A stretch of DNA of 50,623 nucleotides from Psammoneis japonica (taxonomy: Eukaryota), in assembly GCA_008632985.1 (NCBI GenBank), contig QPGO01000057.1, forward strand, positions 405,346 through 455,968, in the 5' to 3' direction. The translations under genes and the position numbers were made by a program. A model generated the notes under the pieces. The model ran no database searches and was not told the DNA's origin. It saw nothing but the letters and a program-made list of their open reading frames with translations. Positions 1,000 to 50,623 of the stretch are shown here, one piece after another (the first letter of the stretch is position 1; each line of letters begins with the position of its first letter).

Positions 1000-2500
1000 T
1001 TGATGCAATCTCTCACCTTGATGTGATGTCTCTGCCAACCTTTTGATCATTGGCGTGGAGTTGTGGTCGTGTCACTCTGGGCATTGCCCTGACAACTGCC
1101 AAGCATGTCAACATCCCCAACCTGAAAACATCAAACTCACAAAAAATTTCATTTGCATTTTTGAAAAATTCCCAATGGAAATGTTCATTGCAACAGTCAA
1201 GTGCAACTGCACAGATTTGAACAAAACAGTGCCAGACTGTCATGACTGTTGTTGCACTCAAGTCAAGATCTGAGACACAAAACAATTTGGTCATGGGGCA
1301 ACGGCTGCAAAACGCAAATGAAAAAGGTCTGCTGGCAACAAGCAAGCATGCATTTCAATCAGAGATGGGCTGACACAACAAATCCAAGAGTGTGCACTCA
1401 TCAGGTCAAAGTGCCAAAAACAATGCCCTGTGACTCATGCACCCTTTCTGTTGGAGCTTTGTGACTTGAAGATCTGTGCACACCTGGTCTTGCCATCTCT
1501 GCCTCAGCTCATGGTGTGGCTCACAAACACATTGGCTGATGTCGCTGGCCATCATTGCCTTGTTTCCCAGGTGCAAAAGCCAAAAATTGAGCCCAAGACA
1601 TGCAACTCAACCCAAGCTGCAAGCACAAGCTTGCCACATTGTCCACAATTGCCAGTGCATCCTGCACTGAAACTTTGTCTGTCATGCAAAACCCACCTCC
1701 AACCCCAATGTTCTAACATGCTCCTTCACACAAGTCGCCAGTTGTTGATTTCCCCCTTGCACATCAAGCACAGGAGAATGACACTTGGAAAGCATGCCAC
1801 CCAACAATGTGTCAACTGTTCCACTGATTTCCATGATCCCTGACGTCCAACTCTGCCAACAAATGGCCATTTCAGGACAATCCCTTCTTCTTGGATGTCC
1901 AACTTTGTTGCACTTCCAGCATGCAATCTTCTTCTTCTTCTCACTCTGAGCAAAGCTTGTGCCCTCAAGGTGTTGTTGGTGCCACAGGTGTCTGACACCT
2001 GCAACACCTCTTTGGCTGACTTGGGGCACATGTCAACCCCCAACACAAACTGCCAGTGCAGGTCTTTTAAGACATGCCAATGATCCTTGGCACCTTCCAT
2101 TGGCACCACCACTGACAGCTTGTTCCTTTCTTTGCTCCAGGTGTTGTCAGCATCCTTGCTGAACCCATTTTCCTTCTTGGCAGTTTTTTCTGGGATGGCC
2201 CTGCCACAAAAAAATTTCACCATCTCAACTGTGCTCATGAGCCAGTTGCAACAATCTTGAAGTGTCTCTGCTTCATCTTGGTGAATGAGTGTCAACTGCT
2301 TCCAAGCCTTGACTGCCTGGATGTGTGGGTTTGTCTTTTCATTTGCACCAAAGAAGATCAGCTGCTTGAGAACCAAACACCCAGTGGTGCTGCCACCATT
2401 TCTCTCACTCCTTTGCAACTCTTGTGAACTCCGCCACCCCTTCAAGCTTGTGACAAATGGCCTTTGTGCATTGCACTGCAATTTTGTTGAACACCTTCAC
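1000..2500 (-). mobile_element. Degenerate LTR-retrotransposon (copia-like) gag/pol remnant
   Basis: Zinc knuckle CWKCNKVGH...DCP (~1900). Gag-like segments HQDEAETLQDCCNWL and DLHWQFVLGVDMCPKSAKEVLQV (cf. QDYY and G.D.YP.T..EA). Boundaries approximate. Confidence 0.6.
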
Positions 2501-17404: not shown

Positions 17405-18131
17405 ATTTTATGCTTAATGCCAACCACAAAGCTGTCAGAATTTGAGGTTTGATGATAATGCTCGTGCACGACTTACTTCCCTGCTTTCTCCGAAAAAAAA
17501 AAAGAATCACGAATCCCGACAGAAAATACCGCAACGTTCCTCTCCTTTTCTATGCGTATTCTCAGATAATTTTTCTTTCTTTTTTAACACTAAGGCTCCC
17601 AGCTGAAGAATACAAACGGGTTTAGAGAAGCGTAGAGCAAAACGACGCTACCTGTACCTCTTTTGTGTTTTGTTCTTGTTGTTATTACAACGATCATGCG
17701 TTCGGCGCTGTCAACAAGACACAAGAACAGCGCGACCACGACACAAGCAACGCGGATAATCTGTTGAAATGACCGATGGAAACATTTTAAATTTCAGAGC
17801 TTAATATAAGTAAAATAATTATTAGGGCTTGGTCATTGAAGTTACTCGATCATACAGCCCCTTCAATTAGAGGATATAGAAACATACATACACCCTTAAA
17901 TAAAACAGAAAATGCTGTGAGCCAATCAAAACGCTGCAAATTCGATCGGCAGCTGTCGCGCGCAAGACGGAACGAAGATCTGCTTCTCCATCACATCAAC
18001 CACCCATCACAATCATCCGCATCGGCAATCTGAAATCGGTCGGCAGAGAAGAAGAGCATCGACATAGTACGCAGCGAACAACAGCAGCCATCAACATCAC
18101 CCTCACTCTCTCCATACCACCACCGTACTCC

Positions 18132-23320: not shown

Positions 23321-25409
23321 AAAAGAAGATAAATTACTATCGTCTTGTTTCAATCTTCCTTCTTTCAGCCTCCTACTTTATTCGATTCAATCCGGTCTCT
23401 GAGACCATGCTTTTTTCGGGATCGCATCTACACCATAAGCTTCATCAAATCCAACCAAGATGAAATGCCGACATAACAAGCGGCTCTCAGAATGATGTTT
23501 GCGGATCCCTTGATTTTAATTTTCCTCGTCATCATTTCGTGGCACATTGCTGGCCATCGGCCGCATCTCTTCATCCTCACTCAAGCTTCATTGTTGGTGC
23601 CAAGGAATGCAACATTGAAAATGCCAGTTTGAGGCAAAGTGCTCCAGATCATTGCTGCTCATTGCAAAAATGAAAGCATGGATGGATTGGCAGTTGCCTT
23701 GTCCACATAAAGCTTGACCTGCTGCTTTTGGTTGGGGGTCGCTGCAGAAACACAAGTCAGCCATCCGCAGCGTTTCTTTGTGCAAGGTGTGAGTTGCACC
23801 ATTTCCCTGCAATGCAGCTGCTTGGGCAACTTCCAGGCTTTGAAAAACAATCAAAAACTCAAGACATTCTCAATTCACAGCCAGATGATGGCCCACAAGG
23901 AATGCCAGCTTGTTTCTGATGGACGAGTTAAAGGGAAATGTGCTGGCAGAGAAAAAAAGAGCCACTGCTGTGTGATGTGACTTCCTCATTGGACTTTTGG
24001 CAGGGGGTCTCACAGCTGACAATGGCTTGTCAACAACAAGCAACATGTTCAAACTGTGGCTTTTTTGCCACACTATTTGAGCACATCTTGGCTTGGCAAG
24101 CTGCCACAAAATGATGCACAACATTGAGCTGTTTGTTGCAGCTGATGACTGCCATCATCAAGCACAAGACAAACTTCTTGGTGAATCAATCAGAGCTGAC
24201 ATGCACTGGAACTCAGGACTCAGGGGTGCAACACCAACTTTCATTGAGAGCAGCTCATCATTTCTGTCATGGATGGGAATGAAGTGCCAAAAATGGCACA
24301 TGCAAAGGAGGTCACAACGGAAAAAAAAAAAAGAAATGGCTTCTTGCACACTCTTGCACAACAAGAAATGTGTCAAAAAACAACAGCCACAAGCAGTTGC
24401 AGAGCTGATGTTCCTGTGCCTCTTCTCATCTTGAAATCTAACACATTTGCTTCAAAGCATCAAGCCATGAAACCTGGGCTGCAGGGAGCAACACAATCAA
24501 GACATGCACCGGTCATTTTCTAAAATCTGAAAACAATTTTGCTTTTGCATGAGCTCATCTGCACCACATTTGACCTTTCAAAGAGCTGCTGGAGCACACT
24601 GTCTCCAAGTGCAATGCAAGGCCACTTGTTTGTTCCATCAGAGTGACAGATGAGTGCAACAGCACCTGCAGTGGAAAGCTGGAAAAAGAAAAACACATCC
24701 CTTTGGAGCTCCTCAGATGAGTGCTTCAAAAGGACAATCTTGCAAAAAGTCAAAAAAGTGCTGAAAGCAAGGCAGGCTCCCATTGCCAGGTTGCTTGTTG
24801 CCAGTGTCATGATCTCACAGTGTGGTTTTCAGCGCACAACATTTCTTGCGCTCAAGCTTGGAGCTGTGGTGCTCATTTTTTGTTTTGTTGTTCCCCAGCT
24901 TTCTTGCCTCCTTTTTGGCCTTGTTGGCTGACTCAACAAGATGCTGGGAGACAGCAACAACAAATGCAGTCCTGGCAATGAAGGGAACATGTGTGGAGCA
25001 TTTCAAAGAGATCCAGCCCACCATCTGTGTGCACCAGCATCTGTGTCATGACACTGGGTGTGCACAAAAAAAAAAAAAACCAACTTGAAGTGCTGTTGCA
25101 CCTTTGCCCAGCAAACTCTCTCAAAAATGGCTGTTCTCACACTCCCCTGATTGGTGCAATCTGGTTGCCAGCCAAGAAAAAGAGAGGCCAGACCAAATTT
25201 CTTCATGGAACATCAGAGCACGCAACACAGTGATCGACACCTTCTTTCTCATGGTGGTTTTTGTTCTTTTTGCAGATGTCCATTTTTTTGCTTTCAAACC
25301 TCATCAGTTTTGCAGCTGGCAACAACAACATGCCAGCTGCAACAGATGAACATTTTTGTGCTGTGGGATCTGACCTGAACCCCCCCCCTGAGGAACACTT
25401 CTTGTTTCG

Positions 25410-26811
25410 CTGTGAAATGGGGGCACGTTTTCCCTGTGAGAGTGCCCACCCTCTGTCCCCACAAAACCTGCAAATTAAAATCATTTGCATTGTGCCACAA
25501 ACATTCTATTTTGTTGTTTGCATTTAAATCAAATGGTGCTGACAGAGACAACCAGCAGCTGCAGCTTGCTTTCTTGAAGCGCCGCTGCTGGCAGCCACTT
25601 GTTCATTGCCAAAAAGTGCAGAGCAGTCCCACGTTGTGAGAGCACAATGTGGACGAACCAATGCTGCTAACAGGAGCAGCAACATGGACTTGCCGGTGCA
25701 TCTGGTGCCACTGATTCTGGACCAGGCAAGTTTGCAGCAGGACAGCTGCTGGTGTTCCATGATTTGAAGTGCTGCCACTCTGTTCCACCTTGTTCATTGC
25801 CAAAAAGAGTGGAGCCCATTGTAAGAGCACAACACAGATGAACCAACACAACCCACGGGAACAGCAACATGGACTCACCAGTGCATCCGATGCCACTGAT
25901 TCTGGAGCAGGCAAGTTTGCAGCAGAGGTGCTGTTGCTCTGACCCACCTTGTTCATTGCCAAAAAGTGTGGAGCATGTTGTGAGAGCATGGTGTGGATGA
26001 ACTGACATGAATGGCAACACACACACTTGCCGTTGTGTTGGTGCATCCAGCACTGCTGATTTTGCAGCAACGTGGACACCGGTGTGTGGTGTGAGATGTT
26101 GAGCACCCATTCACTTTGCAGTGAAATGGGGGCACATTTTCCCTGTGAGAGTGCCCACCCTCTGTCCACACAAAACCTGAAATTAAAATCATTTGCACTG
26201 TGCCACAAACACTCCATTTTGTTGTTTGCATTTAAATTGAATGGTGCTGATGGAGACAACCAGCAGCTGCAGCTTGCTTTCTGGAAGTGCCGCTGCTGGC
26301 AGCCCCACTTGTTCATTGCCAAAAAGTGCAGAACTTGTTGTGAGAGCACAATGTGGATGAACCAACGCTGCCAACAGGAACAGCAACACAGACTTGCCGG
26401 TGCATCCGGCACCACTGATTCTGGACCAGGCGAGTTTGCAGCAGGACAGCTGCTGGTGTTCCATGATTTGAAGTGCCGCCACTCTGTTCCACCTCATTCA
26501 TTGCCAAAAAGAGTGGAGCCCATTGTGAGAGCACAACACAGATGAACCAACACAACCCATGGGAGCAGCAACATGGACTCACCAGTGCATCCGATGCCAC
26601 TGATTCTGGAGCAGGCAAGTTTGCAGCAGAGGTGCTGTTGCTCTGACCCACCTTGTTCATTGCCAAAAAGCATGGAGCATGTTGTGAGAGCATGATGTGG
26701 ATGAACTGACATGAACGGCAACACACACACTTGCCGTTGTGTTGGTGCATCTGGCGCTGCTGATTTTGCAGCAACGTGGACACCGGTGTGCAGTGTGAGA
26801 TGTTGAGCACC
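25410..26811. repeat. Tandem duplication of a ~700-bp unit (25410-26107 and 26119-26811) with shorter internal sub-repeats
   Basis: gtgaaatgggggcac...gagagtgcccaccctctgtcc at 25412 and 26121; recurring gttcattgccaaaaag sub-motif. Confidence 0.9.
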
Positions 26812-26899
26812 TGCAAAGTGTGTGTGATGTGGAGCACCCAGTTCCACCCCTGTGGCTCAAAGAAAACACAGAAAGAAAGCATGCGAGCAAGCAAAAAAC

Positions 26900-27270
26900 A
26901 TCTCAAGTGCCACAGAGTGCACTTGCTGGAATGGCTGCGGGAACAAGCACCGCCTGCATGTGCGCCACACTGCACCAGGTGCTGCACGAAACACAAAGTC
27001 ATGTGGCAATGACTGAGTTTGCCCCACACCTCCTGTGCTGCAGACGGTTCATCAACGACATGTTTAGAGCATGGACCAGAAACAGCAGAGAGACTTGGGA
27101 AGCCTTTGAAAATGAGCTTGGCAACTCAGGCAACCTCCAGTGGGTTGCCTCCCCACTCTCCACCTCTGCAGTTTTTCTGGATCTGGACAAAAAATGGAGA
27201 AGATGGATGCAACGCAAGTGAATGCATCAAAAACCAATGAAGCTCTTTTTGTGCATGCCTTTTTTGAAGA
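26900..27270 (+). mobile_element. Penelope-like reverse transcriptase remnant
   Basis: GMAAGTSTACMCATLH...LLCCRRFINDMF..W...VFLDL...HQKPMKLFLCMP matches the PLE RT pattern G.AMGT..AC.YATLY...YYRRFIDDIF..W...FLDL...YQKPMNLYLYIP. The 3' part is partially duplicated at ~27340-27450. Confidence 0.75.
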
Positions 27271-30048
27271 GTGTCACACATGTGGCAAAGAACTTTTCAT
27301 GCGCATGTGATTCTGAGAGCTGCAGGAACAAGCACCACCTGCAGTCTTTCTGGATCTGGACACAAAAATTGGAGAAGACAGACGCGCCATTGGTGAAAGC
27401 ATCAAAAACCAATGAACCTCTTTTTGCACATGCCTTGTTTGAAGAGTGTCATTTGTGGCAAATTGCAGTGATTCTGGGTGCAAAACTCTGACATGCGCAA
27501 TTGCACCAATGCTGCAGAAAAGCAAGTTTGTGGTGTGCGTGCACACAACAACATGCCAGCAGCTCAGCATTCTGGATGCGGCAGATTTGTGACAGCACAC
27601 TCACGACAACAAAGCTCAAGCTGCACCCCAATCAAAACCTGTCTTGACCAACCAGAAGGACAGCAGGTTTCATCACAGCATGTTGAGCCACTTTCATCAG
27701 CCAGTGGGGTGAAGCATTTCACCGCCATGGCCAGTTGTTGATTTGCAGATTTGCAACCATGCTCAGAATCCATGTGAATCACAACAGCACATGCTCTTGC
27801 TTTTTTTGACTTTTGGGGTGAGGGTGCACTGTTGTGAAGTGTGTGGAAATTTGCATGATGTGTGAAAACAATGCCAAAAACACTGCAGACCAAGGGGCTG
27901 TGAAAACCTGGGAAGCATGAAGAGGCAATTTACAATGGAGGGTGGGTCAGGTGTGTGTGTGAAGTAGACGGCACACATGCAAACACAAACGCATGTGAGT
28001 TGAGGAGGGCCAAAGTGGAAACCAAGTTCAAATTGATGACTGTCAAAAGGAAGCCAAACCATGCATCACAAAACATGGATGCCAACTCCAACCAAGTTGA
28101 ACATTGCACTCATTTGATTGAAGCTTGTGCAAGAAAAGCCAATGAGACATCAGACAAAATGCAAAAAACAACTGCAATTTGTTGAGCTCTGTTGCCGGCA
28201 GTTTTCAAATTTTGCTTGTTGACAATTTTGACAACGCACATTAAAAACTTACAAAGGAAAGTGGAGACCACTGTGTTGCGGCCTCTGATGAAATTAAAAC
28301 AAGTTAAGAAGTCAAAGCAGACATCAGCCAACTGAGTCAGCTGTCCCAGCCCATGCCACCACCCAGCAAGAGTGAAAGCTTTTCACCGGCCACCTCCTCC
28401 ATGAGCATGTTGGCAAGGTTTGTGACCCCAAAAACATGTCCATCAACAATTTTCCCAGCTTCCTGCAAGCACTGGACAGCAAAGTGTTGAGCATCAGTGT
28501 GTCCACACCTTTCAGCAGGAACCTGGTGGCTGGCCATCTTGACAACCGCAGGTTGTCACAGGGGCAACCTTGAAGTCCATTGCAGCCTCCATTGCAGCCT
28601 CCATTGGGCCTGGCATTTCCTGTCCATGAGACAGCTCAACATCACAGGTCAGTCAGAGGAAGAGCATTTTGCAGCACATGCAAGTGTTTTCACAAAGGGG
28701 GTGACAAACACAGCAAACTCAGGGGCAGCCACATTTCCACAAGCTCAGCGACATTGGCCAAACCTTGTTCCACACATTGGATGGAGTTTGGCAACACTCT
28801 TGGAAATTTGTTCTGTTGGCAAGTGATTTGTTCCCTTGTCAAAACAAACATGCTTTGCTCTGCAATCTTGATCTTGTCAGCAGAGGCCCCGTGCCAAAGA
28901 GCGCTTTTCATGACCACCGCGCCATGCAGAAAGCCTTTCCCTTCTTGGAGAGCAGGTGCGCAGCTTGGCTGAACATCAGCACCCTGGCCACCAAATCAAA
29001 AAAATTGAATTTGCAACAAATTCCAAATCCCCGCACAATTGCCATGCGGCAAGTTGAGAAACGACCCTTGTTGTCACCCTCAAAGATCGTCTTGCGACGC
29101 AGGCAACATCCTCTGGTGCCACTCAAGGTGCAGGCGTTCTTTCTGCTTTGATTGAGAAAAGAAATGATGCACAAGAAAGGACAAGAAATCATTGTTTTCA
29201 AAGGAAACCATCTTTTCCTGACTGCAACTCATGCCGACGCATCTCAAAATTTCAACAAAAACGACCTTTTTGGACGATTGCACACTGCCTTTCGTCACAA
29301 ACAAAACACATCAAACAACTCTTTTTTTTTTTTAAATGACAACAACCCAATTGGTGCATTGTTTCATGTCACTCACAGACCTGTGGTTGTTGAAACAGTG
29401 GCATTTGCTCATTTGAAGTGAAAAATGAAGTGCTCTGAGACCTCGCACATGCTCCCGTCATTGTGAAAAACACGAGCTGTTTGTCTTTGTAAATTAATTT
29501 GCAACTCGCAAATTTTGCATCGCAGTGGCTGGTGGTCAAATCCAAAGACAACAGCCAAAAGTGCAGAGAGCATGAGATCCTCAATTTTTCCAGCAGCTGC
29601 AGCAGCTGGAGCAGAACCCTGGTCTGTGGAAGGAGCAGCACCCCAGGTTCCAAAAGCAACAACGGTCAAAAGCATGTGGCCAAAAAAAGCAAGCAGCAAA
29701 GTCACAACTTGCAATGGTGGTTGCACTCAATGATGTGTTGTTGTCATGTCCATTGTCATTCGATGTTTAGGTTTGGAATCATTGTTCATGGTTGATGCAG
29801 TGTTGATGCGATGCGATGCGTTGCGAGGATGATGTGCGAAGCAATCATCCGCGTTCTATCCCGCGCAGTCCCACGTGCGCGGATCGATCCCTGTTTCGAC
29901 GTCGCGCCTGCTATGACGACGCTCAACGTGATATTTGGTATTGTACGGTAGATCGCCGATAGATGCGCGGACACTTCAGTCAACCGCATCGCATTGCAAC
30001 AGAGTGGACAGAACCTAAAACATTATCGTTTCGTTCCTGCCCGTCATC

Positions 30049-35887: not shown

Positions 35888-36456
35888 GTCTCGGTGCTAC
35901 CTTGTCGAATGTTTTCGGTGATTTGGATTGGATTGGTAGTTGATAATAAAGAAAATAGTGCCAGATTCAAAGAACTATGTACCAACATTTCTTGCAAGTC
36001 ACTTACGTTATCATGCCATCACGATCTTGGTACTGTAGATCAGCAGAACTCCTATGTCAAGAGTGGCGTGTTCCATTCACATTATAGATAACGACCCGCA
36101 CGCGACAACCCAGGAGCCCTCGCATCAAAGACAGGCAACGGATGACATGGCACATGATCTGCTACATGAAATAGAGGACATTGTGACGTCCAAAACGTTG
36201 CAGGAGCGCCTTATACATCGCATTGAAGGCACTTATCGACTGCCATTTGGAAAAATCAGGACGACAGCAGGTGCTCCAACTGTCTGCTTTTGCGTCGCGT
36301 GACAGTTAACGAGGAACAACATAATGCGGTCTAAAGGTTAAAGGCATAACATTTATTACATTTTGCAGCGCCGCGCACAAATTGTCTAGATAACACTATC
36401 ATCCAATGTCTCGGCATCAACTTGAATTCTAATGCTACTGCATTTGCTCTTGATAT

Positions 36457-38000
36457 TCACTCGACATCACTGGATGGTTCCACAATGCCTCCAGCCTCTA
36501 CGTCGGGAGTAGCAGCATCTTCATTGCCATCCGTAGCTTGCCATTCGGTTTTCAGGTTGGCAGACTCGTCTCCATCGCTTCGTACGGGCACTGCAATTTC
36601 GTTACGCCGAACAATTGGAATAGTATAGGGCGGATTGTACTGGAACACAACATGCGGCACAACAGCTCCATGTGGGACATCAATCTCTATGCCATCCAAC
36701 TCCAATCGTGAAAGGAGCGCATCCTTTTGACGGCATACTTCACCCTTGGTGACAAATCCTGTGAATCGCGCTACAGCCAGTCGGGCCGGAGGTACATCGA
36801 CAATCTTGACGGCACCCTTTTCATAAAAGCCATTAGCATCTTCTTGCAAAGGATCCGGGAAACCCTTCTCGTCGCTCTCACTGTCGTTTCGGAGATAAAA
36901 GCGCATTTCACCCAATGATGTTGTGGCCACCGGCGTCGTCATGGCCATGGTCTTGCCCTCATCATTGGCTCCAAACAGATAGGCAGCAAGCGTATTGAAG
37001 GCGGCTCCTCCACTTGCCAAATCGTCTACGGAGTAAGGCTCATCCACCTTTGCCATGTTGGTTGAGGCCACCACGTATCCTTCGTATTCACGAATCTCAT
37101 AGCCCTCTCCCTCTTGTACCACTTTATAAGCCGGGCCCACCAAACCTTGCGGTGTTTCCGAAAAGATGTTCTTCGCTTCGATTCCCACGCTTTCAATCTG
37201 CCGGGTGAGTCGCTTTGGAATGCGAGAAGGGTCCTGCAAATCTCCTTGGAGCAGTTCGAGATTGCGCCTTGCTTGATTGGAGATTGCATTGAAAATACTG
37301 GATCCCACCTTCGGAAGCAATGTTGGTAAATCGGACGGGGGTTGTTGCGATTTCTGAGTGGCCGCCGCGATTCCCGGTAATATATCATTCGTCAACTGAC
37401 GAGCCACGGCTCGAGTTCCGTCTTGGAGTTTCTTGCTTTTCGGTGTGAGGAGAGAATCGATCTATAAAATGAACGTGAAGAAAAGTAGAAACAGGCGACG
37501 GGAGGGAAACGGTAAGCAGATAAACGAAGAAAAACATTGATGACAAGGAAATACTTCCGGCACCGGATCCCATCAACACAGTGCAGCCGCAACGAGAATG
37601 CAATACCCACCTTTCCATCTCGGAGTGCAGCTTGTACGCTATCGCGAATTTCTTCATTTGCGCTCAAGAGATCATTAAGAAGGATTTGTCGTCGAGCAAG
37701 AGATGTGGTTGGATCTAAAAGCTCATCCAAACTAGCTTGCCACGAAGCCTCTACTTTTTCTTCTTGACCAAACATCTCTCCTTCGGATTCTTCTTCTTCT
37801 TCTTCAAGGCTATCGGCAAAGGCAGAGAAGGCGTCTGCGCTTGCAGTAGCACTGCCACCACTGCTACTCTCCGACAATGCCACCAAGGACGAAACAGCAT
37901 GGCCGTGACGACACTGCCCCGTCGTTGATACAATGCCAAAACCTGTCGCTGGTTCTAAAAGCAACAACAATAGCGTCGTTGCACCAAACAGCAACTTCAT
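36457..38000 (-). CDS. SOUL heme-binding family protein, probably plastid-targeted; intron 37462-37610
   Basis: YEIREY, AFNTLAAYLFGAN, MAMTTPV, QYNPPYTIPIVRRNEI. Presequence ATG-F. Intron restores frame. Confidence 0.9.
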
Positions 38001-41000
38001 GCTGTTTCTTCTCTGTTTAGTTTGATAATGACGGAGGAACTTAATCTCACAACCACACAACAAGAAAAACTCAGGCGAACTGAAACATAGATATGAAAAG
38101 CGACTTTGAACCTAAAACGAGATGTGGGCAGCCACCCACAGATTGGAAGCGGTGTTCTTCGAGAGAAAGATCCTCCTGCCTCGCCTCCTGCCACAAAAGA
38201 AGCGAGCGATGGAGTAGACTACTTGGCAACTTATTATACGCAACGCGCGCACACGGGTGACGGCTGCGGCAGTTTCAGTTCGGCATGTTGAAGTTGAAAG
38301 TTGCGGATCGGGGGAATTCACCCCGGATGTGAAACCCCCCAGTTTTTCTCGCAGTTTCGGCGCACAGAGGCGGAGGTTCGTCAACGATGTTGTTGACACA
38401 AACAGAGCACGATTTGAGAAAACACTGTTTGACTGATGAACAAGCAACAAATGACATGAGCTGATGCTCATCCAAGTTTCGTTTCTCCAACGACATGGCA
38501 GCCACATTCCTCAAAAACAAGCTGCAAAAAGAAGCTGCCGGCATGGCCCAGTGTTGTGCGCTGCTCTGCTCTGCCAGTCAATCAAACCTTGGGGCTCTCC
38601 ATTGAGTGGCATGTTTAGTCCTTGGCTTCAAAATCAACACACTCAACTCTTAAACCTGCCCCACCCTTTCTGCACCAAAAAGAAGATGTGCTTTGTCAAC
38701 AATCTTTCGGGGGGCACTTGGCGCAACGTGCTCCGGCCCCACTCACGAACCAAAGCGTGCACAAAAATGACACCCACACAATTTCCGCATGGTCTCTGAC
38801 TTGCAAATGAGCTTTCACCAACAAAAGCATGGGGATTCATTGAAGGTCAATGTTTTGCAATGCCGGCAAGTCAAGATTGGTGCCAGCGCTGCAACATCGT
38901 CGTTGTTCTTGTGCGCTGATTTTTTCATTGTGACGAACGAGTTGCAACACAAAAGGATGATTTTTGCCAAACACACCATTGCCATTTGTGGGTTGACACA
39001 AAATGTTTCTTCGTGCATTTTGCAGCAGTGGTCTGCTTGCACAAGAATCTCTGCAATGTGGGTGCTGTTGCACACTCAGCATCGTTGTTTCTGCAGAATT
39101 TTTTTGACACACATGATGAAACAAATGTTCAAATGTTCATGCTCTGATCAAACACAAAAGCCAGAGTGCACAAGTGTTTTCAATGAACAGCCTCAACATG
39201 TGAAGCTTGCACATGAATTGTGCTCAAAAGGGAGCATCGTTTTGTGCGTGAGCTGGGGCTGGAGCACTTCTGGTGTGGGGGGAGTGGCGGCCATTGAGAC
39301 CTGCATGTGTCAACAACAGACAAAACTGTTGGAGTTTTTTTGCTTGTCAGCTGACACATGCTTTGTCTCACTGACCCCAAACTTGCCGCACAGCTTTCAA
39401 ACACATTTCTCAAGAAGTGAGCACAAGACCGGCAACCCTTTCAAGACACAACAATGTTCCTTGTCACCTTCCATCAGCATTGCTGCCATTGACTTCTCCC
39501 TTTCTTTGTTCTGGCGGGTGTCATCAGCACCCTTGCTGAGCCCATCCTCTTCTTTCTTGGCAATTTCTTCTGGGGCAATTCTGTTGCATGAGATGTTTCC
39601 ACCCCATCTCAACCTCAACAGTGCCGGTTGAGAGCCAGCAGCTGCAACAATCTTGAAGTGTCTCTCCTTTGTCTTGACAAAGAAACTTGCCAACATCATT
39701 TTAACATGGCAAGCAGCACACAAAAACATTTTCACAGCCATTTGTTGGCAGCATTGTCAACAGGCCGAGTCACTTGAAGATGGGCACAACTTTTGAGCTG
39801 TTGCACCACATGACACAACTTGTTTTTGCAGAGTTGTCAGCAACCTTTTTGAGAGGATGCTCTGGCAATCACTTGGCACTTTTTGCACAGAAGCTGCATG
39901 AAAGCCACTCGTGCACATTCCTCACAGATGCAGGACAATGAAACACAGAAAGTGTGGCATTTCTCATCATGAGACAATGCCCAGCAGCAGCGAGCCAAAA
40001 CGGCATCATTTGCATCTTTCCACAGCTCCTGTTTTGCTCACCCAATTGCTTCAAAAGGGTCAGGGCAAGCTCACAAGTTTCATGTTGCCACAATGGAGAA
40101 CAAAGCAACCGCAGGTTGTTTTTCATTTTGCTGCTTCAGAATGAGGCACAACAGGTTGTGTCAAGGTGTGCGAGTGTGCTGGTTGTGGTGATGGCCAGTC
40201 TGGAGAGCAGCGCATCCACCACCATGGCGGCACCAACATCCTTGTTGATGATTTGAATGATGCTGATTTGCACGCCGTGTTCTCACGTGCTCTCCATTGC
40301 TTGCTCTGAACCAAGTGCTCTTTCCACCAACTCCAATGACATCAAAACTGCAGCTGGTGGAGAGTTCTGTGAAGTCCCTTGAACTCAGAAATGACAGTGT
40401 TGTGGCCCACAGTTAAAACACACTCAACATGTCCTCAATCACAACTGTTGCAAGCATCTCATCACAACTCACAGGCTTTGCATCCTTTGTGACAAAGTCG
40501 AGCATGTCACTTGCCAGTCGTTCACGGGAGCTTGGTTTGCCGAGCTTGAAGCTGTTGCGGGAGCAGGCAGAAGTCATTGGACCAGGCCCTGGAGCAAGTT
40601 TAGTTGGTGCCAGCTCTTTGGCAGAGTGGAGAGGCCCCACCAGTGCAAATTGGGCATGGCAAGTGGCATGTGATTGGATGGATTTTGATGGATTTTGATG
40701 ATTTGCGGAAGAGCAACAGGGCACAAAATTGACGCTGGATTGTTGCAATTGCCAAACTGTGTTGGCTGCGCGCAGCAAGTGCCGCAGGTGCTGAAAAGTT
40801 GATGAAGAATTGTCAAGGTGTGCAGCAGAAAACTGCTCCCTGCCATCACCTCTGCAGCAGCTCTGTTCAATCTAATCTGGCACAAAGCCTTGCAAATGCC
40901 GGCAACACTGCTTTTTTGACAGGTCATCATCTCTGTTGGAATCATTTGAGGTTCTGCCCGGCAGCTGGATCTCATGCAACTCCACCAATCCCTTGTGTTT

Positions 41001-41601
41001 GCATCTCAAAAGCTGGTTTGTTGCACCCTCCAACCCACCACTGTGAGTGCACACAACAATTTCTCTCCCAGACAATTTCTGGCATTCATCAAAACCCTTT
41101 TCCAGGCCGTCCCTTCCTGTCTGCAGTCTCCAGCATTGCAACATCAAGTTCCATGCTGCAGGTGCCCCGCGCAGCAAATCAAAATCAACTCTGCTCTCCT
41201 CTCTCATTTCTTGAAATGCATCCAAATTTTTGGCACGCGGCTCACTGAACCAACGGGGTGTTTCCCGTGAGCAGCATTGTTGGGTGCCAGCGCAAGTGGA
41301 GTGCCTGACTCTGTCCCACCTCCACCTGCCTCTCCAAGTTGAGGAACATCATCTGTCACCTTGCGTGTGCATTGTCGCCAACACAATGGCAAACCACCAC
41401 ACGAATGTCCACCGAATTTCTTCCATTTTGCAGCAGCTTCTCTGTTTTGTGATGAAGCAATGCTGCAGTTGCACATGTGCCACCCGGGATGCAGACTCAC
41501 AATGGCCTCCCACATCCACACTGCTTCCAGAATGAAACGATTTTGCTGGCCAGTCGCTGCGCACCAGGAACTGCCGCCCCACATGCTCCCCATGTGGCAC
41601 C

Positions 41602-41994
41602 TGATGGGTTCCAGTCCTGGGTGGGACTCCGTGTGACATTGGGCCCGCAGAATTCTGCGTGCAAGCTCCGCAGCAAATTTGTGCTGCAATGAAAACACAA
41701 ATGATTGCCAACAGAAAAAGAGGCAATTTTACGAACGTGTCTCCTCCTTCATGCTTGGAGCACATCATTGACAGTTTGCCCGGGTGTGTTCTTCAGACAT
41801 CAAAGAACACACCCAGAGAACTCTTGTTCTCACAAATGTTGAAAACAGAAAGCCTTTGGCTTTGCAAAACAGGGAGCATGAAACAATTTCGTAGAATGTG
41901 AGAAATGCACGTGCGCGACATGCGACGCGATCCAAAAAACTGTTGATGTCACAGTGCAGCAGTGCAAGGTCCCACCCAGAGCTGGAACGCGTCA
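41602..41994. mobile_element. MITE-like element, copy A (~393 bp)
   Basis: Imperfect ~25-bp terminal inverted repeats (tgatgggttccagtcctgggtgggac ... gtcccacccagagctggaacgcgtca). Homologous, in inverted orientation, to 45391-45787. Confidence 0.8.
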
Positions 41995-42639
41995 GCTCCA
42001 CTTTTGCTCAGAAAAAATTTCCACTCGGTTGATTTTGTAGAAAGTGAGGCAACTTCTTTGCACACAACAAAACCTCTTCCTCTTTGATGCTGGCGGGTCT
42101 TTGCTCTTTTCAAGCTGTTGCTGAACTCGGCTCATTTTTTCTGATCTCAGCTGGGATGCAAAACATGGGCACTGTCTGGAAACCAAAGCAGGTGAAATGT
42201 GATGAAAGCTCCTGACAGCAAGACACATGATGCTTGGTCAATGATTCATTGGAGCATCCTGCCAACTGACTGGCCAGCAGCTTTGTTGAAATGCAGCTGC
42301 ACACAGTGAGCAGAAATGCCAGCAATTCAATGACGAGCTGAAAGAGGTTGTGTTGCTGACAGTCGGGTGTGGCAATGGACAATGTCAACAGCTGTTGCAC
42401 CTCCTGCCAGCAGCTCTCTACAGTGGAGTGGAGGTGCTTCCATGAACGCCACTTTCAACTTGCTGGTGGTCTTCACCATGGTCGATGTGTGCGTTGCACG
42501 CATGGTGGGAAACCATGCCATCTGCTCTTCTCCTGTGTCATGATGTCATTGGACCAGGAAAAGGAACCCGGATGGACCTGGGTTCCTTTTCACAACTGGG
42601 GTTGCATGTTTTTTCATGCTTGATTCTTCTCGGCAAGGA

Positions 42640-42915
42640 TGACAGAAATTGAAGGCAAATGGCAAGAACTCAAACAACAACTCCTTGCTGCTGTCTAAAC
42701 AGCAGATGAGTCTCCGCTCAGAGACCGTCACAGGAGCCGAAAGACGTGCAAGTCGGCACAATCGGGCCACTGTCATTGTTCTTGTGAGCCTTGTGGCTCG
42801 AAAGCAAACTGCATCGCGCGCGAACACGTGGAACCAAAGCACACAAAACTGTGTGCGGTGAACTAAACAGCGCGCAACATTTCACGCGCACCTGAATCCT
42901 GTTCAAATCCTGTCA
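42640..42915 (-). repeat. 3' LTR (276 bp, TGACAG...CTGTCA)
   Basis: Inverted termini, follows the polypurine tract, aligns with 49778-49947. Confidence 0.92.
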
Positions 42916-45390
42916 CTCCCCAGTTTGCTTGAGGAGCCACAGAAACAGATTCGACTTCGGATGGAATGAAGTTCCAGAACATGAGGGGGCGGAGAAGGTC
43001 CCAGATTTGGGAGTCACCCCAATGCTTGCTGAGAATGTCAGCAGGGTTGCGGGAGCCCTCGATGAAGTGGAGCTCAAGGTGACCAGAGGCAACTGCCTCA
43101 CGCACACGGTGGAACAACAGTGCAGTGTGTCGCTTGTGCAACTTGGAGTGTGGGATGGTGGCACTGTCTGCAACAACATGTGACTGATGTTGCGGATCGG
43201 GACGCCAAGGTGTCGCAGGGTGATGCGCAGGTTGACAATCTGCTTGACACAAGTCCTTGCGGCAACAAATTCAGACCCGCAGGTCGCAGTCTCCACGGTG
43301 GCTTGCTTCTTAGAGAACCAATCAGCCGGGAATTTGTTGAGGAAGTGGAGCATTCCCATGACAGAGCGTCCAGTGAGCATGCAATGGTGCAAGTTTGCAT
43401 CGATGCAGTGGGTGGCAGTGACAAACTTGCCAAGGGGTGGTGGAGCGTCCTTTGGGATCATCTCTTCTGCTTCGCCGCACACGGAATGCATCCATTCACA
43501 GGCCGGAGCAGGGAGATCCGAATGGTCGGGCTCTTCTGTGCGAATGCGGAGAGCGCCGTGTTGCATCTTGGAGAGGCACCCACAGACGCGTTTGGCACGA
43601 TCCAAGTGGCCTTGACGGGGCGCAGCTCGGAAGCTGGAGAGTGACATGACGGCCGTGGCAATGTCAATTCGACCAAGGGACACTGCCCATTGGAGTGAAC
43701 CAACAAGAGACTGGAGCTGGTGAATGCCATCGGGCCCCAGCAGTTCGGAAGTGTCCAGTTCGGGGTGGTCACCCTTCTCCAGAGGTGACAGGGTGTTGGT
43801 GGCAGGTTTCTCCCCAAACAGTCATGCGCAGCTGTCGACCATGCGCTTGATGCACTTGCGCGGAGACAGGCACAAGGTGCCATCAGGATCCCGGGAAAAG
43901 TCGCAGCCCAGATGGAACTCAATCGGTCCCGCACCCTTGAGCTTGAACTTGTGCTTTTCCGTGAGAGCATCAACGAAAGATTGAGGGTCCTTCATGGCAA
44001 TGGCGAGGTCATCCACACAAACGGCAATGTGTTCGCAGTGGTTGCCGTTCCTGTGCATCCAAATGTCGGGTTCGGCACGGCAGGGGAAGAAACCTTCAGC
44101 TCGCAGGCAGTCGGCGAAGTGCTCGTGCCAGCGGAGACCGGAGCTGCGCAGTCCATGCAGGGCCTTGTGGTTGACAAGGATGTGGCCTTCGAGTTTGCCA
44201 AATTTGGGTCCGGCTGCAATGTAGAGCTTCTCCTTGGTGGTGGCTTCAAGGTGGGCATTGCCAATGTCAGTGGCCCATGTCTCCAACTCGTTGAGTTCGG
44301 ACAGGAAAATCATCAGCCGAAGGCCATGGAGGGAGACCACTCCGGAGCAGACACTGTCAATGGGTGCGTCCGTGAGGTGCCCATCGGCTGCAAGTCATGC
44401 CTTGTGGCAACCGTCGTGTTTCACGTCGCACACTGGGTGCACTCGGATCTTCTTGTGTCCCGCAGGAGGAGTGGAAGACTCGGAGGGCCCGCAGTCATGG
44501 AAGACTTCGTGTTCCTCGAGTTGGTCCATCTCGAGATTAGTTGCGTCTCCCCATTTGCGGTTGCCGTTGCGTTCGTCCAGTGACATGGCGTGTTTGTAGT
44601 TCCAGGGAACTTCGCATCCGCACTTGTGGCAAGGTGCAGTGTGGAAGGAGTGAAGCTTGGCTTGGTTGGCCATGCGGAACAGCTTCTTCTGGTGCCTCGC
44701 GATGGTGCGGAACCGCTTCCAGCCATCAGTGTCGAGAAGTCCATTCTCTTGTGCATGGATGGTGCAGGTGACAGGGTTGTCCTTGGCGATGATGGCAAGA
44801 CGCTCGGACGTGATCTCCCCACTTTCCCATTCAAGCACAATGTTGTGGCTTGAGCCTTTCCAGGTTGGGTCATGAGGCTTCAGAGGTCCTTCGTGTGACA
44901 CAATGCGCCAAAATTTCCAAACAGCAGTGTCTTCGTCTTCTTGCTCAATGTGATTCATGATGTCGTTGCAGGCAAGGACTTCCTCGCATTCATCATTGTT
45001 GACAGAGCAGACGAACTTGGTGAGCTCGGGATTGCCGTTCACTTTCCATTCATGGTCTTCGATGGCCTTGACGATGCCAGCTCTGTGGCATTGTCCGTCC
45101 TCTTGTGGCTGCATGAGGAAGGTGCGTCTGATGATTTCTTGCGGATCGAAAACTGGCATCTTGGGTGTCCTGATCTCCCCATCAGGTGAATCGACGGAGT
45201 TGTCGTCATGGCGAGATTTGATGATGGGTTCAGGTGGCTCCCCATCAGGAGGATCAAGATGCAGGTTTTGAACGGCAGGATCAGTGGCAGCAGATCGTAC
45301 GTTGGACTGGCAGAGGATCTTCTGAGTCTCGTCAGAGAGAATCTTGAAGGTCATCTGGTGGCCGACGTGCTCAGCAATGCCAACAAAGTG

Positions 45391-45787
45391 TGACGTGTTC
45401 CAGCTCCAGGTGGGACCTCGTGCTGCTGAACTGTGACACAATCATTTTTGTCATCCGTCGCATGTTTCACACGCACATTTCTACGTGTTCTGTTGTAAAA
45501 AATTGTTCCACACTGCCTGTTTTGCGAAGCCAAAGGCTTTCTGTTGTCTGCACTTGTGTCAACAAAAATGCGCTGGGTGCATTCTTTGATGTCTAAAGAA
45601 CACACCCGGGCATGCTGCAAAGAATGCACTTCAAGTGTGGAGGAGGAGACACGTTCGCAAAATTGCCTCTTTTTCTGTTGGCGATCATTCATGTGTTCAT
45701 TGCTCAACAATTTTACTGCGGAGCTCGCACGTAGAATTCTGCGGGCCCAATGTCACAAAAAGTCCCACCTGGGACTGGAACCCGTCG
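45391..45787. mobile_element. MITE-like element, copy B (397 bp), inserted in the copia integrase C-terminal region
   Basis: Imperfect ~25-bp TIRs. Removing it plus 2 bp restores ...ELHG-H-FVGIAEHVGH in frame. Confidence 0.85.
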
Positions 45788-48700
45788 CGTCCATGCAACT
45801 CACCGGATTCGGACGGCCAATCGGAGTCATCGAGGTGGAAGCACACGGGTTCCCACCAGTGAAAGCGAAGCAATGGGCTGATGTCCGGGGTGGAGCCAGT
45901 GAGAGTCTCGAGGGGCATGCGCCAGTGGAGACGTGGGGACGCTGTGTGGTTGAGCATGAAGCACACGTGCATGAGTGCCAGCAGCCATGTGTGGGCAGGC
46001 GAACCAAAACGATCCATGACAGTGTTCGCCATGCACTTCACGGTCTGGTGTCGACGTTCGGCAAAGTTTTGGTGTTGCTGGTGAGGCTCACTTTGCCAGC
46101 TGGAGACAAAGAGGGCTCGTAGGATCCCGAGCACCTTGTTGCTGATCTCAACTTGAGCACGGTCGCCAATGAGTTTGGATGGAGCACCACGCTCACGGAT
46201 CTGATCCTCGAGTGTGTTGACAAACTCTTTGTCCGTTTTGGTGCCGCAGATGTCAGTGACGGCAGACTCGGTGCCAACAAACAGTTGGGCGCTGGTGCAA
46301 CCAGAGTCAACGGCTGGGGTGTCGGCATGAACGGTGTCAGTGGCGACAGGCTCATTGCGGCGGTGCACATCAAGGGTGGGGTTGGGTGATTTGTGGGCCT
46401 TCCCCAAGGTGTGCACCAGCGGGCATGCGGGCGCACTGCATGGTGCAGTCGAAAGTGCGACAAACCACATCGGCAGGTTGGAAGCCAAAGTGAGGCCGTG
46501 TAGATGACACTCGCAGAGCACGTCATCGTTCGGAATGAGATGGTCATCGAGGGCGGATGCGTGATCGGCAGACAAGGAGGCGGACATGATGGTCTTGTTG
46601 ACAACGACACGATGACGGTGGTTGCCGCACTCGTCAAATGGGTTGGCAGTGGGATCGTCCTGTGGGTCAGAGATCGCGTCGCACCACTGGTCGTCGTCAG
46701 TGACAGAGTGATCGAGGACGGAAGGATCCCATGTGTCATCACCGGCAAGGATGACATGGGGCAGGGTGTCCCATTCGGCGTCAGCGCAAGGTCGCATGGC
46801 AACACAAGGCAGGCCGCCCTTGATGTCAATTGGGATGACATGGCCATCAGGGGTGGCAACACGGTGCAAGCCATTGGGCACCTTGACAGAGCAATCGTTG
46901 ACATCCTGTTTGCACCATTCGAGCTGGCCGCAGGAATGAATGGTCTTGCCCTTTCCCGTGCATGCGTGCTGATGGAGGATGGCAATGACGGGACCATGCT
47001 GTGTCTCAATGATGGCACCAGCGGTGACAATGGGGATGTCCAACAATTGATGGTCGTCAATGCCCTGAACGTCGACTTGGCGAGAGGTGCATGCAATGAC
47101 GCAAACGTCATCGCCAGCAATGCCGCCGTTGGCCCCCACGATCGACTAGAGCACCAGTGCGTGTGGAGCGATGAGTGGAGGCAGAGCAAATGACATTGTG
47201 GTCATCAACGCAGCGGCAAGTGCGGCCGTTAAGTTCTGTGTCATCGGCAGGAGCGGGCAAGGTAGAGGGAGTGGCAGATGGCCCCGGTCGACTAGCGTTG
47301 GGGGCTTGGTTAGGAGACAACAGGCATTGCAGATCACCAGGTGGCAGTGGCTTGCGCTTGGTGAGGTGCACCAGGATGGGATTGTCTGAAGTGGCATCCA
47401 CATTTGGAGTGGGGTCACCAGAGTCAGCTGGAGTCGTGTTGGACAAGTTGACATCACCGTCACTCCCAAGGCGTTGGTCATGAAGGTTGGCCGTAACGGA
47501 CTCATGGCAGTTGCTGGCTCGCGGGTTGCGGGGAGGCGGATGAGAATGCTCAGGGATGATCGCCTTGGAGGAATGGGGCAACGAATCCCAAATCCGTTGG
47601 TGGTCGGGAGGGAGACGTTTCCATTGGTCACCGGTGAGGCTGGGACCGCGGGTGCAGGCAGCATTGGCCTGAAGGATGTCAATGTCACTGTCAATGTCGC
47701 AGAACACATCATCGGACGGTTCCTCGGAGCAGACGTCGTGTGTGTGTGTGGCGCGTCGGGGAGCTCCAGGTGTCGTCTTGGGTTGAAACGCACTGTCGCA
47801 TTGAGCTGCCGCGGAGAGGAGCAAGCCACAATGTTGATCGCATGTGAGGCTCTTGCCACTCTGCGTGCGATGCTGATCAGCTTGGTTCTTGACAGCACGG
47901 AGTTCCTCGACAGGATGTGCGGCATTCTTGAGCATGACGCACTTCTGTCCTTCAGAGAAGTGGTCGCTGGCCAGGATGAGTGCCTCGTGCTTGCGCAACT
48001 GATCTTGCCAATGAAGGATGAACCCGTGGGTCGGACCTTTCCAAGTGCCATCACCAAGACGTGCGGTGGTGAGGCACGTGAGCAAGGTGGAGGACTCGAC
48101 AGATGCGCGGGTGGAGGCGAGCACATGCTCGGACAAGGCGCGGCAGATGGTCTGGGCGTCAGAAGACCCCACATTTTCGCGAATGAGAGCCTTGCCCTTG
48201 TCGGTGAGAAGGATGCGTTCGAAGACAGCGAACATGCACTTTTGTTGTTCAGCAAAGAGCAGTTTGTCTTCAGGGCTGGTCGGTTTGTACGACGAGTCTA
48301 GAGTGCACTCGACGTCTTGGGCACGGGCTTGTGCCACAAGTGAGGTGTGCCAAGTGTGCCACTGCTTGTCGGATTTGAGAGCCGTGAAAGCGGTGGGGTC
48401 ACGCTTGATGCCTCGCTTGAAGTCTCGCACCGGGTCGCATGCCTTGGTCGGGTTGGTGACATGCGGAGGTGCGAGGGGCGAGCTGCCGACAGACACAGAA
48501 GACATGCAGTCGGGGCTGAGGCGGCAGGCAAGGAACTCCTCATGCGTGAACAACGAGGAGTCATTGGCAACGTCAAAGACCTTCGTGTGCTTTGACAATG
48601 CACAGACTGATCAGAGCTGCTGACATGTTCTTATGACCGCGGGGCAAAGGGATCACATTGGTGCCGTCATCGCACTCAAGCGAGTCGATTTGGGATGGCA

Positions 48701-49777
48701 TGAATGTGAACAGTTCTTGATGCGAGTCCGTGCCGTCGCGTGGGTCAAAGCCAAACAAAGAGGGATCCCAGCACCTTGGGCAAGCACGGTTCCAACAACA
48801 TGCTCAAAACCATCGGTTTGTTGCTGACGAGTGAGAACCATGGCAGACAAAAGTGGTGTCAGGACAAGCGATTCTTGTTGGGATGCGAAGGTGGACTTGA
48901 AACTTGGGTGAGAACAGACTTGACTTGAAACAGACTTGACTTGAAATCTTGAGCCACCTTAAAATCAGAAGTCGCCGGGCTGTGCCATCCCGTTCGTTGT
49001 CAAGTGCTAAACTTCCCATCCGGTCCGCAGAGTTGTGCCGGCACGTCCGAACCCGCAGCCAGCGGCACTTTGGGTTGCTTGCGAGCGGAGCAGCGGGTTG
49101 CAAACCCCTGCAGGCAAGCTGACTGGAGGTGGACAAGACCCCCGAACCGTTCTTGTTTTACATCGGTTGGATTTCCCGATCAGGCTGGCCAGTTGACGCA
49201 GGCATTGGGTGCTGTGGACGAACGAACAAACGCGGGAAAAACACCCTCGCCCCAATGCAGGCTGCAATCACGGCTGCTTGCTCTCACAGTCATCCTCGTG
49301 GACCTGGCAGAACTGCAGAGCACCAGTGGTCCGGGGTGGATCAGGTGCAATGGACTCGGTGTGCTTGTAGAGTGGTGGCAAAGCCGTGGTTCAAAGAGTG
49401 GGTGCAAGTTCTTGGCTGAGAGGACATGCACACACGTGTGTCTTCAGCGACGAAGATCCTTGAATGTGCAGGGTTCTTGACCATCAACCGTTGAATGGGT
49501 GTGCAAAGTGATGAGGATCAAGGGTGGACTTGGACATGACCGTTGATGTGTGTCTTCAGCGATGAAAGGCAGCACAATCAATCCAGACACACAGCGGCAA
49601 GGAGACTTGACGGTGACGTTAAATTCCTGCCGATGCCTGGCATTGCACGCGTGCAGACTTGCCGATGTGTGTAGAATGTGTGCGGAGGTCCACGCAGAAT
49701 TGAAATGGCATCGTCAGCAAATCAACGACGATGATGGCAGTTGCTCAATGGGTTGACAATGAGCAAGACTGTCAATC

Positions 49778-49947
49778 TGACAGAAATTGAAGGCAAATGG
49801 CAAGAATTCAAACAACAACTCCTTGCTGCTGTCTAAATGGCAGATGAGTCTCCACTCAGAGACCGTTGCAGGAGCCGAAAGACATGTGAGTCGGCACAAT
49901 CGGGCCACTGTTGTCATTCTTGTGAGCCTTTTGCGCAAATCCTGTCA
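49778..49947 (-). repeat. 5' LTR (170 bp, ~106 bp shorter than the 3' LTR)
   Basis: Same termini; ~150 bp colinear with 42640-42791 at offset 7138. Confidence 0.9.
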
Positions 49948-50623
49948 AAGGAACCCAGATCCGGGTCCCATGTTGGGCATGCATGAATTTGACTCATGGC
50001 AGTGGAGGGTGCGGCTGTGAGACCCGGCTCTCAAGCAACTTCAAACTGGCATGGCAGGCGCACTCTGGATGAGCACACAGACCACCGCTGCCGTGACAAC
50101 ACGGAGAAATTGTCAAAAAACCGCCGGAGCCAATGACGACATTGGCGTGGCAGATGAGGTGTCCAAACAATCTTTGTTTCTAGTCCCATTGCCATGGCAG
50201 GTTTGTTGCTCCATCTTTTGCTTGGGGTTGTAAAGGGGCCATCAGAGAACGGCAGCGAGTCGAGTTTTGTGCACACACACACCCATTGCGCCCGTTTGTG
50301 ATGCCATGATTCATGCCAATTCTTCACATGCCCACCACCAGCCGGATTTCCAGCACCCGCTGAGTCAAACTCCAAGTTTGACAAAAAGAAAGCAAGTTGA
50401 AAATCAAAATGGTGTTGTCAATGTGTCCAAGGCTCGCCACTTGTTGTTTCACTCAACTTTCTTGCCGCCGCAGCCGGCTCTTGTTGTGTCAGCACATTGA
50501 CAAATCCAATGTCATCATCACATCGTCATCACGTCATTGCGCCCATTTGAGCAATGGCGCTGACCAGACGAATCTCATTCAAGACTTTGATGAAGCAACT
50601 GCAATGCATCCAGCCAAGCATTC

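Follow-up and report, generated by a model that had tools for sequence, protein, structure and literature searches.

A stretch of 50,623 nucleotides from the diatom Psammoneis japonica (positions 405,346 to 455,968 of contig QPGO01000057.1; referred to here as the window, with positions counted from its first letter) contains a predicted copia-type long terminal repeat (LTR) retrotransposon at 42640–49933 on the minus strand that has lost nearly all of its TA dinucleotides. The losses are A:T to G:C transitions which turned TA into TG or CA, arose on both strands after the element had integrated, and are confined to discrete blocks of the window; the same pattern occurs in two of 80 relatives of the element from environmental samples. 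It is highly probable that a genuine process acting on DNA is responsible for it.

Based on its structure and on protein homology the element (7294 bp, including a nested insertion of 403 bp; TA-depleted all along) belongs to the copia-type, diatom CoDi-like LTR retrotransposons and lies on the minus strand. Two direct repeats of about 156 bp, which align with each other, represent its 3' LTR (42640–42795) and 5' LTR (49778–49933; both named in element orientation and on the minus strand). They flank a gag–protease–integrase–reverse transcriptase (RT)–RNase H polyprotein, which is the order that defines the Ty1/copia type. The best match, an intact protein of 1859 amino acids (P0122), is colinear with the element over residues 91–1848 in four tblastn high-scoring segment pairs (HSPs; 48571–47135, 47136–45751, 45387–43177 and 43174–42959). 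All on the minus strand, the gag-like part thus extends over 47135–48571 (residues 91–577) in a frame unlike that of the next part, the protease/integrase part over 45751–47136 (residues 577–1044), and the RT/RNase H part over 42959–45387 (residues 1032–1848). A read-through of the latter with stops given as X (P0121) matches hundreds of intact polyproteins of about 1850–1950 amino acids at 55–65% identity. When the 11 open reading frames (ORFs) of the element were scanned against Pfam, only the RT-holding one was recognised (RVT_2, E 1.5e-15, 43822–44340, minus strand); ORF 45697–47139, which corresponds to the protease/integrase part, returned no Pfam family. The 5-bp flanks of the element do not match as a target-site duplication would and no primer-binding site was recognised, and the LTR ends are therefore approximate. 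The nested insertion (45388–45790) resembles a miniature inverted-repeat transposable element (MITE), its terminal inverted repeats being some 20 bp long, and a second, inverted copy of 81% identity is located at 41606–41994. Being less mutated than the surrounding copia element, the nested MITE-like insertion is probably younger.

Between 42640 and 49947 only 30 TA dinucleotides are left in 7308 bp, which corresponds to an observed/expected ratio (O/E) of 0.08; the values for CA, TG, CG and AA are 1.65, 1.46, 0.77 and 1.11, respectively. Five of the 30 TA fall in the nested insertion (403 bp), so that 25 remain in about 6.9 kb. These counts agree with an earlier reading made from the letters of this DNA without database searches (the sequence-only reading), which had estimated about two dozen TA by eye. 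It had further stated that neighbouring genes use TA and Tyr normally, which is compatible with a TA O/E of 0.44–0.82 in the genic kilobases of the window (CG O/E about 0.8–1.2) and with a Tyr content of 2.5% in nine ORFs. Every peptide in which it had noticed Cys or His in the place of Tyr (CVDD, HCEHIAV, KALHGL, GNAHLEA, ATCGSEF, DANLHH, LTCDQHC and RKHE) was found in the minus-strand translation.

The direction of change was derived from 60 intact homologues of at least 1700 amino acids that were placed on the DNA by tblastn; a codon was kept if 20 or more homologues covered it and 80% or more of them agreed, which resulted in 735 codons. At the 40 codons with a Tyr consensus the window reads Tyr twice, His 18 times, Cys 16 times, Phe twice, and Leu and Asp once each. 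Hence, 34 of the 40 former Tyr codons are CAY or TGY (CAC 12, CAT 6; TGC 15, TGT 1). Non-Tyr consensus codons are unchanged at 624 of 695 positions, a degree of retention that does not fall below that of intact relatives under the same scoring (0.70–0.94). Intact relatives did not already carry Cys or His at these sites, as might have been objected to the sequence-only reading: the homologues have Tyr at all 40 of them, including the catalytic Tyr of the YVDD motif, which is present in 59 of 60 homologues and is encoded as Cys (TGT) at 44017–44019 (minus strand) of the element. Over 1750 aligned amino acids the polyprotein contains 3 Tyr, 67 Cys and 106 His, compared with 3.8% Tyr, 0.9% Cys and 3.6% His in 120 homologous proteins. 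Not all nucleotides could be polarised in this way as there was no unmutated member of the same family, the protein search having found no protein of more than 64% identity.

The change is specific for TA rather than a general A:T to G:C shift. AA steps are spared, with Asn replaced by Ser at none of 20 and Lys by Arg at 4 of 41 consensus codons. CpG decay is present in the element at a much lower level: of 52 Arg-consensus codons 43 are unchanged, and eight of the nine changes are of the CpG type (His 4, Cys 2, Gln 1, stop 1). Given that TA was lost from 95% of the Tyr codons and that about 16% of the CGN Arg codons were changed, the TA process is roughly 15 times faster than CpG decay in this element. 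The view that the element was inactivated in this manner holds in part. Conserved and catalytic Tyr residues have indeed been destroyed, but the premature stops are products of CpG decay (CGA to TGA), whereas the TA process can only yield missense changes and removes TAA and TAG stops. One in-frame TGA (44395–44397, minus strand) occupies a position where 60 of 60 homologues have Arg, consistent with decay of CGA; a second one (43822–43824, minus strand) is located where the homologues have Arg (25 of 54), Lys (17), Thr (6) or Gln (6).

The two LTRs of a retrotransposon are identical at the moment of its integration. In the present pair they differ by five CA/TG doublets, two sites with CG versus CA, a further transition and a transversion, and a single TA (within CTAAA) survives in both. 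A CA/TG doublet indicates that an ancestral TA (or CG) was mutated on opposite strands in the two copies. Because the CpGs of the LTRs are mostly intact (four are common to both), the ancestors of the doublets were TA, and mutation thus took place in the chromosome. The MITE-like pair (45388–45790 versus 41606–41994) differs by ten CA/TG doublets, four sites with TA versus TG or CA, and seven sites with CG versus TG or CA. The doublets of both pairs therefore bear out that the change occurs after integration, and the presence of the same changes in a MITE-like DNA element shows that the process is independent of reverse transcription. Action on both strands, near saturation, is likewise borne out by the similar numbers of His (18) and Cys (16) at former Tyr codons, of which two are left as Tyr. 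The order of His and Cys along the element is random (18 runs versus about 17.9 expected, counted by hand), and this order, together with the near-equal numbers, excludes editing of the sense RNA. No strand-coordinated tracts were apparent, and the partially mutated relatives L035 and L022 are evenly depleted. Each LTR of the pair was changed at about 10 of 11 inferred TA sites, compared with about 1% of other sites, which suggests, on the small counts that one LTR pair offers, that TA is lost at least 100-fold faster than other sites are changed.

TA-poor DNA is also found elsewhere in the window. An older block that is poor in both TA and CpG lies to the left of the element (38400–42639; 10 TA in 38500–42639; no recognisable protein), two further blocks of this type were delineated by composition at 23600–29700 and 1–4400, and the right flank of the element (49934–50623) has 2 TA in 676 bp. 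Together, the three long blocks and the right flank contain 40 TA in about 14.8 kb and are as TA-poor as the element itself. TA O/E is as low as 0.01–0.06 in the 1-kb bins 39001 to 42001, where CG O/E is 0.23–0.52, and CG O/E in the three long blocks ranges from 0.04 to 0.52. The edges of the blocks are sharp, within about 200 bp, and host genes are spared. No Pfam family was recognised at E 0.01 or better in 51 ORFs (at least 100 amino acids) of the older blocks, the blocks at 23600–29700 and 1–4400 among them, and tblastn with 25 copia homologues gave no HSP in the window outside the element. The sequences form an age series of old blocks depleted in both TA and CG, a copia element depleted in TA and hardly in CG, and, nested in it, a MITE-like element partly depleted in TA. 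Long ORFs are present in all six frames of the TA-poor DNA, with 31 ORFs of at least 100 amino acids overlapping 41000–50623 and 51 in the other blocks; these long false ORFs exist in every frame because TAA and TAG have been erased. The block at 23600–29700 contains a tandem duplication of about 700 bp with 93% identity and shorter internal repeats (25405–26811), and the block at 1–4400 includes a run of 97 N at 619–715, which represents an assembly gap.

As a baseline for the family, metagenome contigs were scanned, which brought up 80 related loci with a median TA O/E of 0.71 (range 0.02–1.07). The closest intact relative, L001, contains 97 TA in 2220 bp versus 5 in 2211 bp of the element. 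A C-rich coding strand is common to both, which marks the GC skew as ancestral, and the idea that the skew is a product of the TA process was rejected on these grounds. Two loci bear the signature. In L060 (TA O/E 0.02) the 26 Tyr-consensus sites read Tyr 1, His 10, Cys 8 and other residues 7, and in L035 (TA O/E 0.31) they read Tyr 13, His 6 and Cys 7. Since both originate from other records, the signature is not an artefact of one assembly. The other 78 loci keep Tyr at 75% or more of the Tyr-consensus sites and show no shift to His or Cys, with at most three His and one Cys at such sites among the matches listed. Four of these loci (L012, L018, L025 and L047) have a CG O/E of only 0.22–0.25 together with a TA O/E of 0.49–0.66 and retained Tyr. 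Their hosts seem to methylate the element without exerting the TA process, which is consequently separable from CpG decay. Among 240 database proteins, three (P0355, P0313 and P0336) are poor in Tyr (0.9–2.3%) and rich in Cys and His, and are likely to represent further hypermutated copies; P0313 is located on a contig of 46.8 kb. In L072, positions 1–400 are free of TA and precede a copia gene of normal TA content, an arrangement that looks like a young insertion beside an older hypermutated block.

Loss of TA depends on the flanking bases. Relative to 62 intact relatives (326 kb), a single TA in an ATA or TAT context is left in the element where about 177 are expected, and about 12% are left in other contexts. 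In the old blocks survival is 0.44 for TTAA, 0.15 for CTAA and 0.08 for GTAA, so that overall TAT/ATA is lost most and TTAA least. An additive model in which the 3' neighbour of the A is ranked T > C > G > A fits these data; one built on the base 5' of the T is its mathematical equivalent, and the small number of polarised counts does not discriminate between the two. Tetranucleotide gains are a noisy guide to the direction of attack. Likewise, the excess of CAT over TGT is confounded, as four of the six CAT codons precede G and may be CAC-G after CpG decay.

Taking these data into account, we propose that a host mutational process hits chromosomal DNA once mobile elements have integrated, changing 5'-TA-3' to TG or CA, i.e., by A:T to G:C transitions on either strand. 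Its action is limited to sharply bounded, transposon-derived blocks which are probably silenced and cytosine-methylated, and proceeds roughly two orders of magnitude faster than background substitution. A young LTR retrotransposon thereby loses about 95% of its TA, its remaining sequence staying nearly intact; the resulting damage consists of missense changes that put His or Cys in the place of conserved and catalytic Tyr residues, accompanied by erasure of TAA and TAG. In chemical terms, the favoured candidate is a putative deaminase that would convert adenine in T-A context to hypoxanthine, which is then copied as G. We further infer a link to silencing and a function in defence. Deamination of adenine in T-A steps is, as the chemistry, evenly balanced between being right and being wrong, and the statement as a whole, i.e., post-integration TA hypermutation of silenced blocks by adenine deamination, is in our opinion just on the probable side.

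Several points speak against this proposal. Methylation and silencing of the blocks are deduced from CpG loss only, and the deaminase is a putative one. The process is confined to some hosts rather than general, most relatives, even CpG-decayed ones, having kept their Tyr. The products TG and CA do not tell which base was attacked; effects of the base at +1 of the A and of that at position −2 are confounded, and the directional hint given by Tyr codons that are preceded by A (His 5, Cys 1) is weak. Finally, the contigs from a public sample that are discussed below stem from four runs of a single sample and study, possibly the very data from which the assembly was made, and they do not constitute independent support.

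TA-specific A:T to G:C hypermutation of invading DNA has been described in one earlier report, a 2026 preprint on a rhizarian alga, the chlorarachniophyte Bigelowiella natans (Mettrop et al., bioRxiv 10.64898/2026.01.13.699255). The sequence-only reading, which knew of no description, was thus anticipated by a direct measurement of the same TpA to TpG/CpA change. According to that preprint, 230 of 231 de novo mutations detected by mutation accumulation in two integrated viral regions, one from a nucleocytoplasmic large DNA virus (NCLDV) and one from a virophage, were A-to-G or T-to-C. They were all located at TpA and occurred in some lines only, at about 6e-7 per site per generation, which is two to three orders of magnitude (about 1000 times) above background. 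The preprint also counts 324 coding sequences that are poor in TpA, with RT and DDE domains enriched among them, and proposes an ADAT2-like deaminase as a candidate. Both systems have in common A:T to G:C changes at TpA (here 34 of 40 Tyr codons, 15 doublets and four TA-versus-TG/CA sites), the involvement of both strands, and the confinement to bounded foreign or selfish DNA with host genes being spared. By contrast, the host is a diatom (Stramenopila) instead of a member of the Rhizaria, and the process has struck an LTR retrotransposon, a MITE-like element and unclassifiable blocks instead of NCLDV and virophage DNA. Depletion is near saturation here (O/E 0.01–0.08), unlike in the NCLDV region of B. 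natans (Rho 0.45). Moreover, the evidence in B. natans consists of de novo mutations whereas ours is historical, being derived from LTR pairs and from polarisation by homologues. TA loss coincides with CpG loss in the window; the available text of the B. natans account is silent on CpG loss in its regions. Full-text literature searches, which included passages of PMC2806351, did not bring up any account of diatoms losing TA or undergoing TpA hypermutation, nor of such hypermutation in transposons at saturation.

Other systems that mutate mobile DNA resemble the process in part. Repeat-induced point mutation (RIP) of ascomycete fungi also causes dinucleotide-specific transitions on both strands of mobile elements and leaves sharply bounded blocks of odd composition. 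However, RIP turns CpA into TpA, whereas here TpA disappears (O/E 0.08) in favour of CpA and TpG; with RIP the GC content falls and stops arise, whereas the process described here raises GC, erases TAA and TAG and produces missense changes only. Deamination of 5-methylcytosine yields TpG and CpA as well, and CpG decay is present in the same blocks, but such deamination cannot remove TpA. APOBEC3 and ADAR in animals likewise mutate retroelements in a short sequence context. They act on cDNA and double-stranded RNA, respectively, before or during reverse transcription, and their changes are strand-asymmetric and common to both LTRs; by contrast, the changes reported here are symmetric, arose after integration and affect a DNA-type element too. 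RID-like DNMT4 genes of unknown function are present in many diatoms, as stated in PMC9998398. DNMT4 was rejected as the cause, however, since a family of cytosine enzymes does not explain A:T to G:C changes.

It is conceivable that targeting operates as in RIP, with duplicated DNA being sensed by homology and repeats alone being mutated. This possibility was addressed with contigs from the public sample (four runs of one study, platform not on record). The copia family is present in very many copies, as 17,311 contigs are at least 85% alike over the element; the summed word depth of about 50,600–139,900 per bin over 42344–50151, compared with 62–302 in bins 36000–41367, lies hundreds to thousands of times above single-copy level and should not be read as a copy number. 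Two or more copies also exist of the MITE-like element, which likewise suits homology-based targeting. On the other hand, the TA-poor block at 38400–42639 is covered at a word depth of 53–58 versus 58 in the unique gene flank, and the hypermutated NCLDV insert of B. natans is single-copy (10.64898/2026.01.13.699255). The depth argument is indecisive, since old copies may have diverged below the 85% threshold. With a TA-poor block at single-copy depth in one sample, the label "repeat-targeted" used in the sequence-only reading is not sustained, and we consider RIP-like targeting rather doubtful.

The contigs over the block at 38400–42639 differ from the window at 0–6 positions per 400–750 bp. 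The differences listed are mostly of the CpG type and include one TG to CA doublet (40129/40130), and none of them restores TA. Among copies of the copia element, transitions were found at 882 places and transversions at 166. The four types of transition are evenly represented (A>G 222, G>A 224, C>T 220, T>C 216), as independent TG or CA outcomes at about 400 former TA sites would give. At some of the sites listed, 46620 for example, TA is retained by other copies and the window reads TG. TG/CA doublets between the window and contigs of the public sample were noted at 40129–40130, 42768–42769 and 47988–47989; they would be an allelic or between-copy sign of opposite-strand mutation at one TA. 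The base at 47133 is missing in many other copies of the element among the matches listed, and one contig of run X1 bridges 45388 to 45790 without the MITE-like insertion.

The same process could also be based on a different chemistry. A modified thymine in TpA, for example an oxidised or hypermodified T, may mispair with G, or error-prone repair in heterochromatin may place G opposite T. TG and CA would arise equally from T to C on one strand or from A to G on the other, and the fact that TA and CpG loss share the same blocks makes a chromatin-bound modifying or repair activity plausible. Yet we know of no T modification that gives clean T to C transitions. Error-prone synthesis of the Pol-eta type (WA to WG, where W is A or T), one of the candidates put forward in the sequence-only reading, should strike AA, which is not mutated according to the Asn and Lys codons and to the AA O/E given above, and this weighs against the candidate. 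Altogether, a chemistry other than adenine deamination appears unlikely.

It is very improbable that the signature reflects a sequencing or assembly artefact in which a modified base at heterochromatic TA is read as G or C. Such an error might be suspected, as the records do not name the platform used for the assembly or for the runs, and as the four runs from one sample and study may be the assembly's own data. However, strand-dependent miscalls should split the depth, and block depth equals that of the flank; moreover, none of the few differences listed for the block contigs restores TA. The signature in L060 and L035 from other records and the three Tyr-poor database proteins likewise argue against an artefact, and so do the changes in B. 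natans, which are described as heritable de novo mutations in Illumina data (10.64898/2026.01.13.699255).

ADAR-like A-to-I editing of the element RNA before reverse transcription would be in line with the 5' U preference of ADARs, which suits T-A (10.64898/2026.01.13.699255). It is nevertheless extremely improbable. Editing of the sense RNA predicts Tyr to Cys alone, which is at odds with the 18 His codons observed alongside 16 Cys codons, and it accounts neither for LTRs that are discordant at five CA/TG doublets nor for a DNA-transposon-like MITE that was changed in the same way. ADARs favour a 3' G, yet in the element TAG/CTA belongs to the contexts that are depleted less. Scarcely credible, finally, is the notion that no mutation process exists and that the family was always TA-poor or is under selection against UpA in RNA, since, despite a mild shortage of TA in host genes (O/E 0.44–0.82) and relatives (median 0.71), intact relatives have Tyr at the 40 sites and normal TA, the catalytic Tyr of YVDD would not be replaced under selection, and the LTRs came to differ at former TA sites once the element had been inserted.

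With our analysis, the signature reported for B. natans is found in a second major lineage of the SAR group, and at saturation in diatom transposons. Diatoms include tractable and ecologically dominant algae, so that the enzyme should be findable by comparative genomics and knock-outs. It is tempting to speculate about an ancient, SAR-wide immunity shared by diatoms and chlorarachniophytes, in which a chromatin-guided enzyme would deaminate T-A adenines in the double-stranded DNA of silenced invaders and inactivate transposons and integrated viruses within about 10^7 generations. Such an enzyme would represent the first DNA adenine "base editor" of natural eukaryotic origin to serve genome defence, but we regard the extended model as more probably wrong than right by a wide measure. 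Laboratory adenine base editors were evolved from TadA; to our knowledge, no natural enzyme deaminates adenine in chromosomal DNA for the purpose of defence. In practical terms, dead transposons of this kind are filled with false ORFs, are hidden from profile searches and raise the local GC content. Unless TA and CG sites are masked, the prediction of genes, the annotation of repeats and age estimates from LTR divergence will therefore be misled.

Among the genes neighbouring the TA-poor blocks, the isopropylmalate/citramalate synthase gene at 18421–19917 has best matches of 61–71% identity, and every match with a named organism among the 120 listed is from a diatom, which places the host among the diatoms or very close to them and not with Bigelowiella. 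The ORF at 9353–12208 (minus strand, 951 amino acids) contains LRR, CHAT and NACHT domains, a STAND-type, caspase-like architecture that recalls proteins of innate immunity or cell death. Tandem repeats of about 102 bp with 84–88% identity are present at 16530–17035 within the ORF at 14987–17407 (minus strand), in which no Pfam family was recognised.

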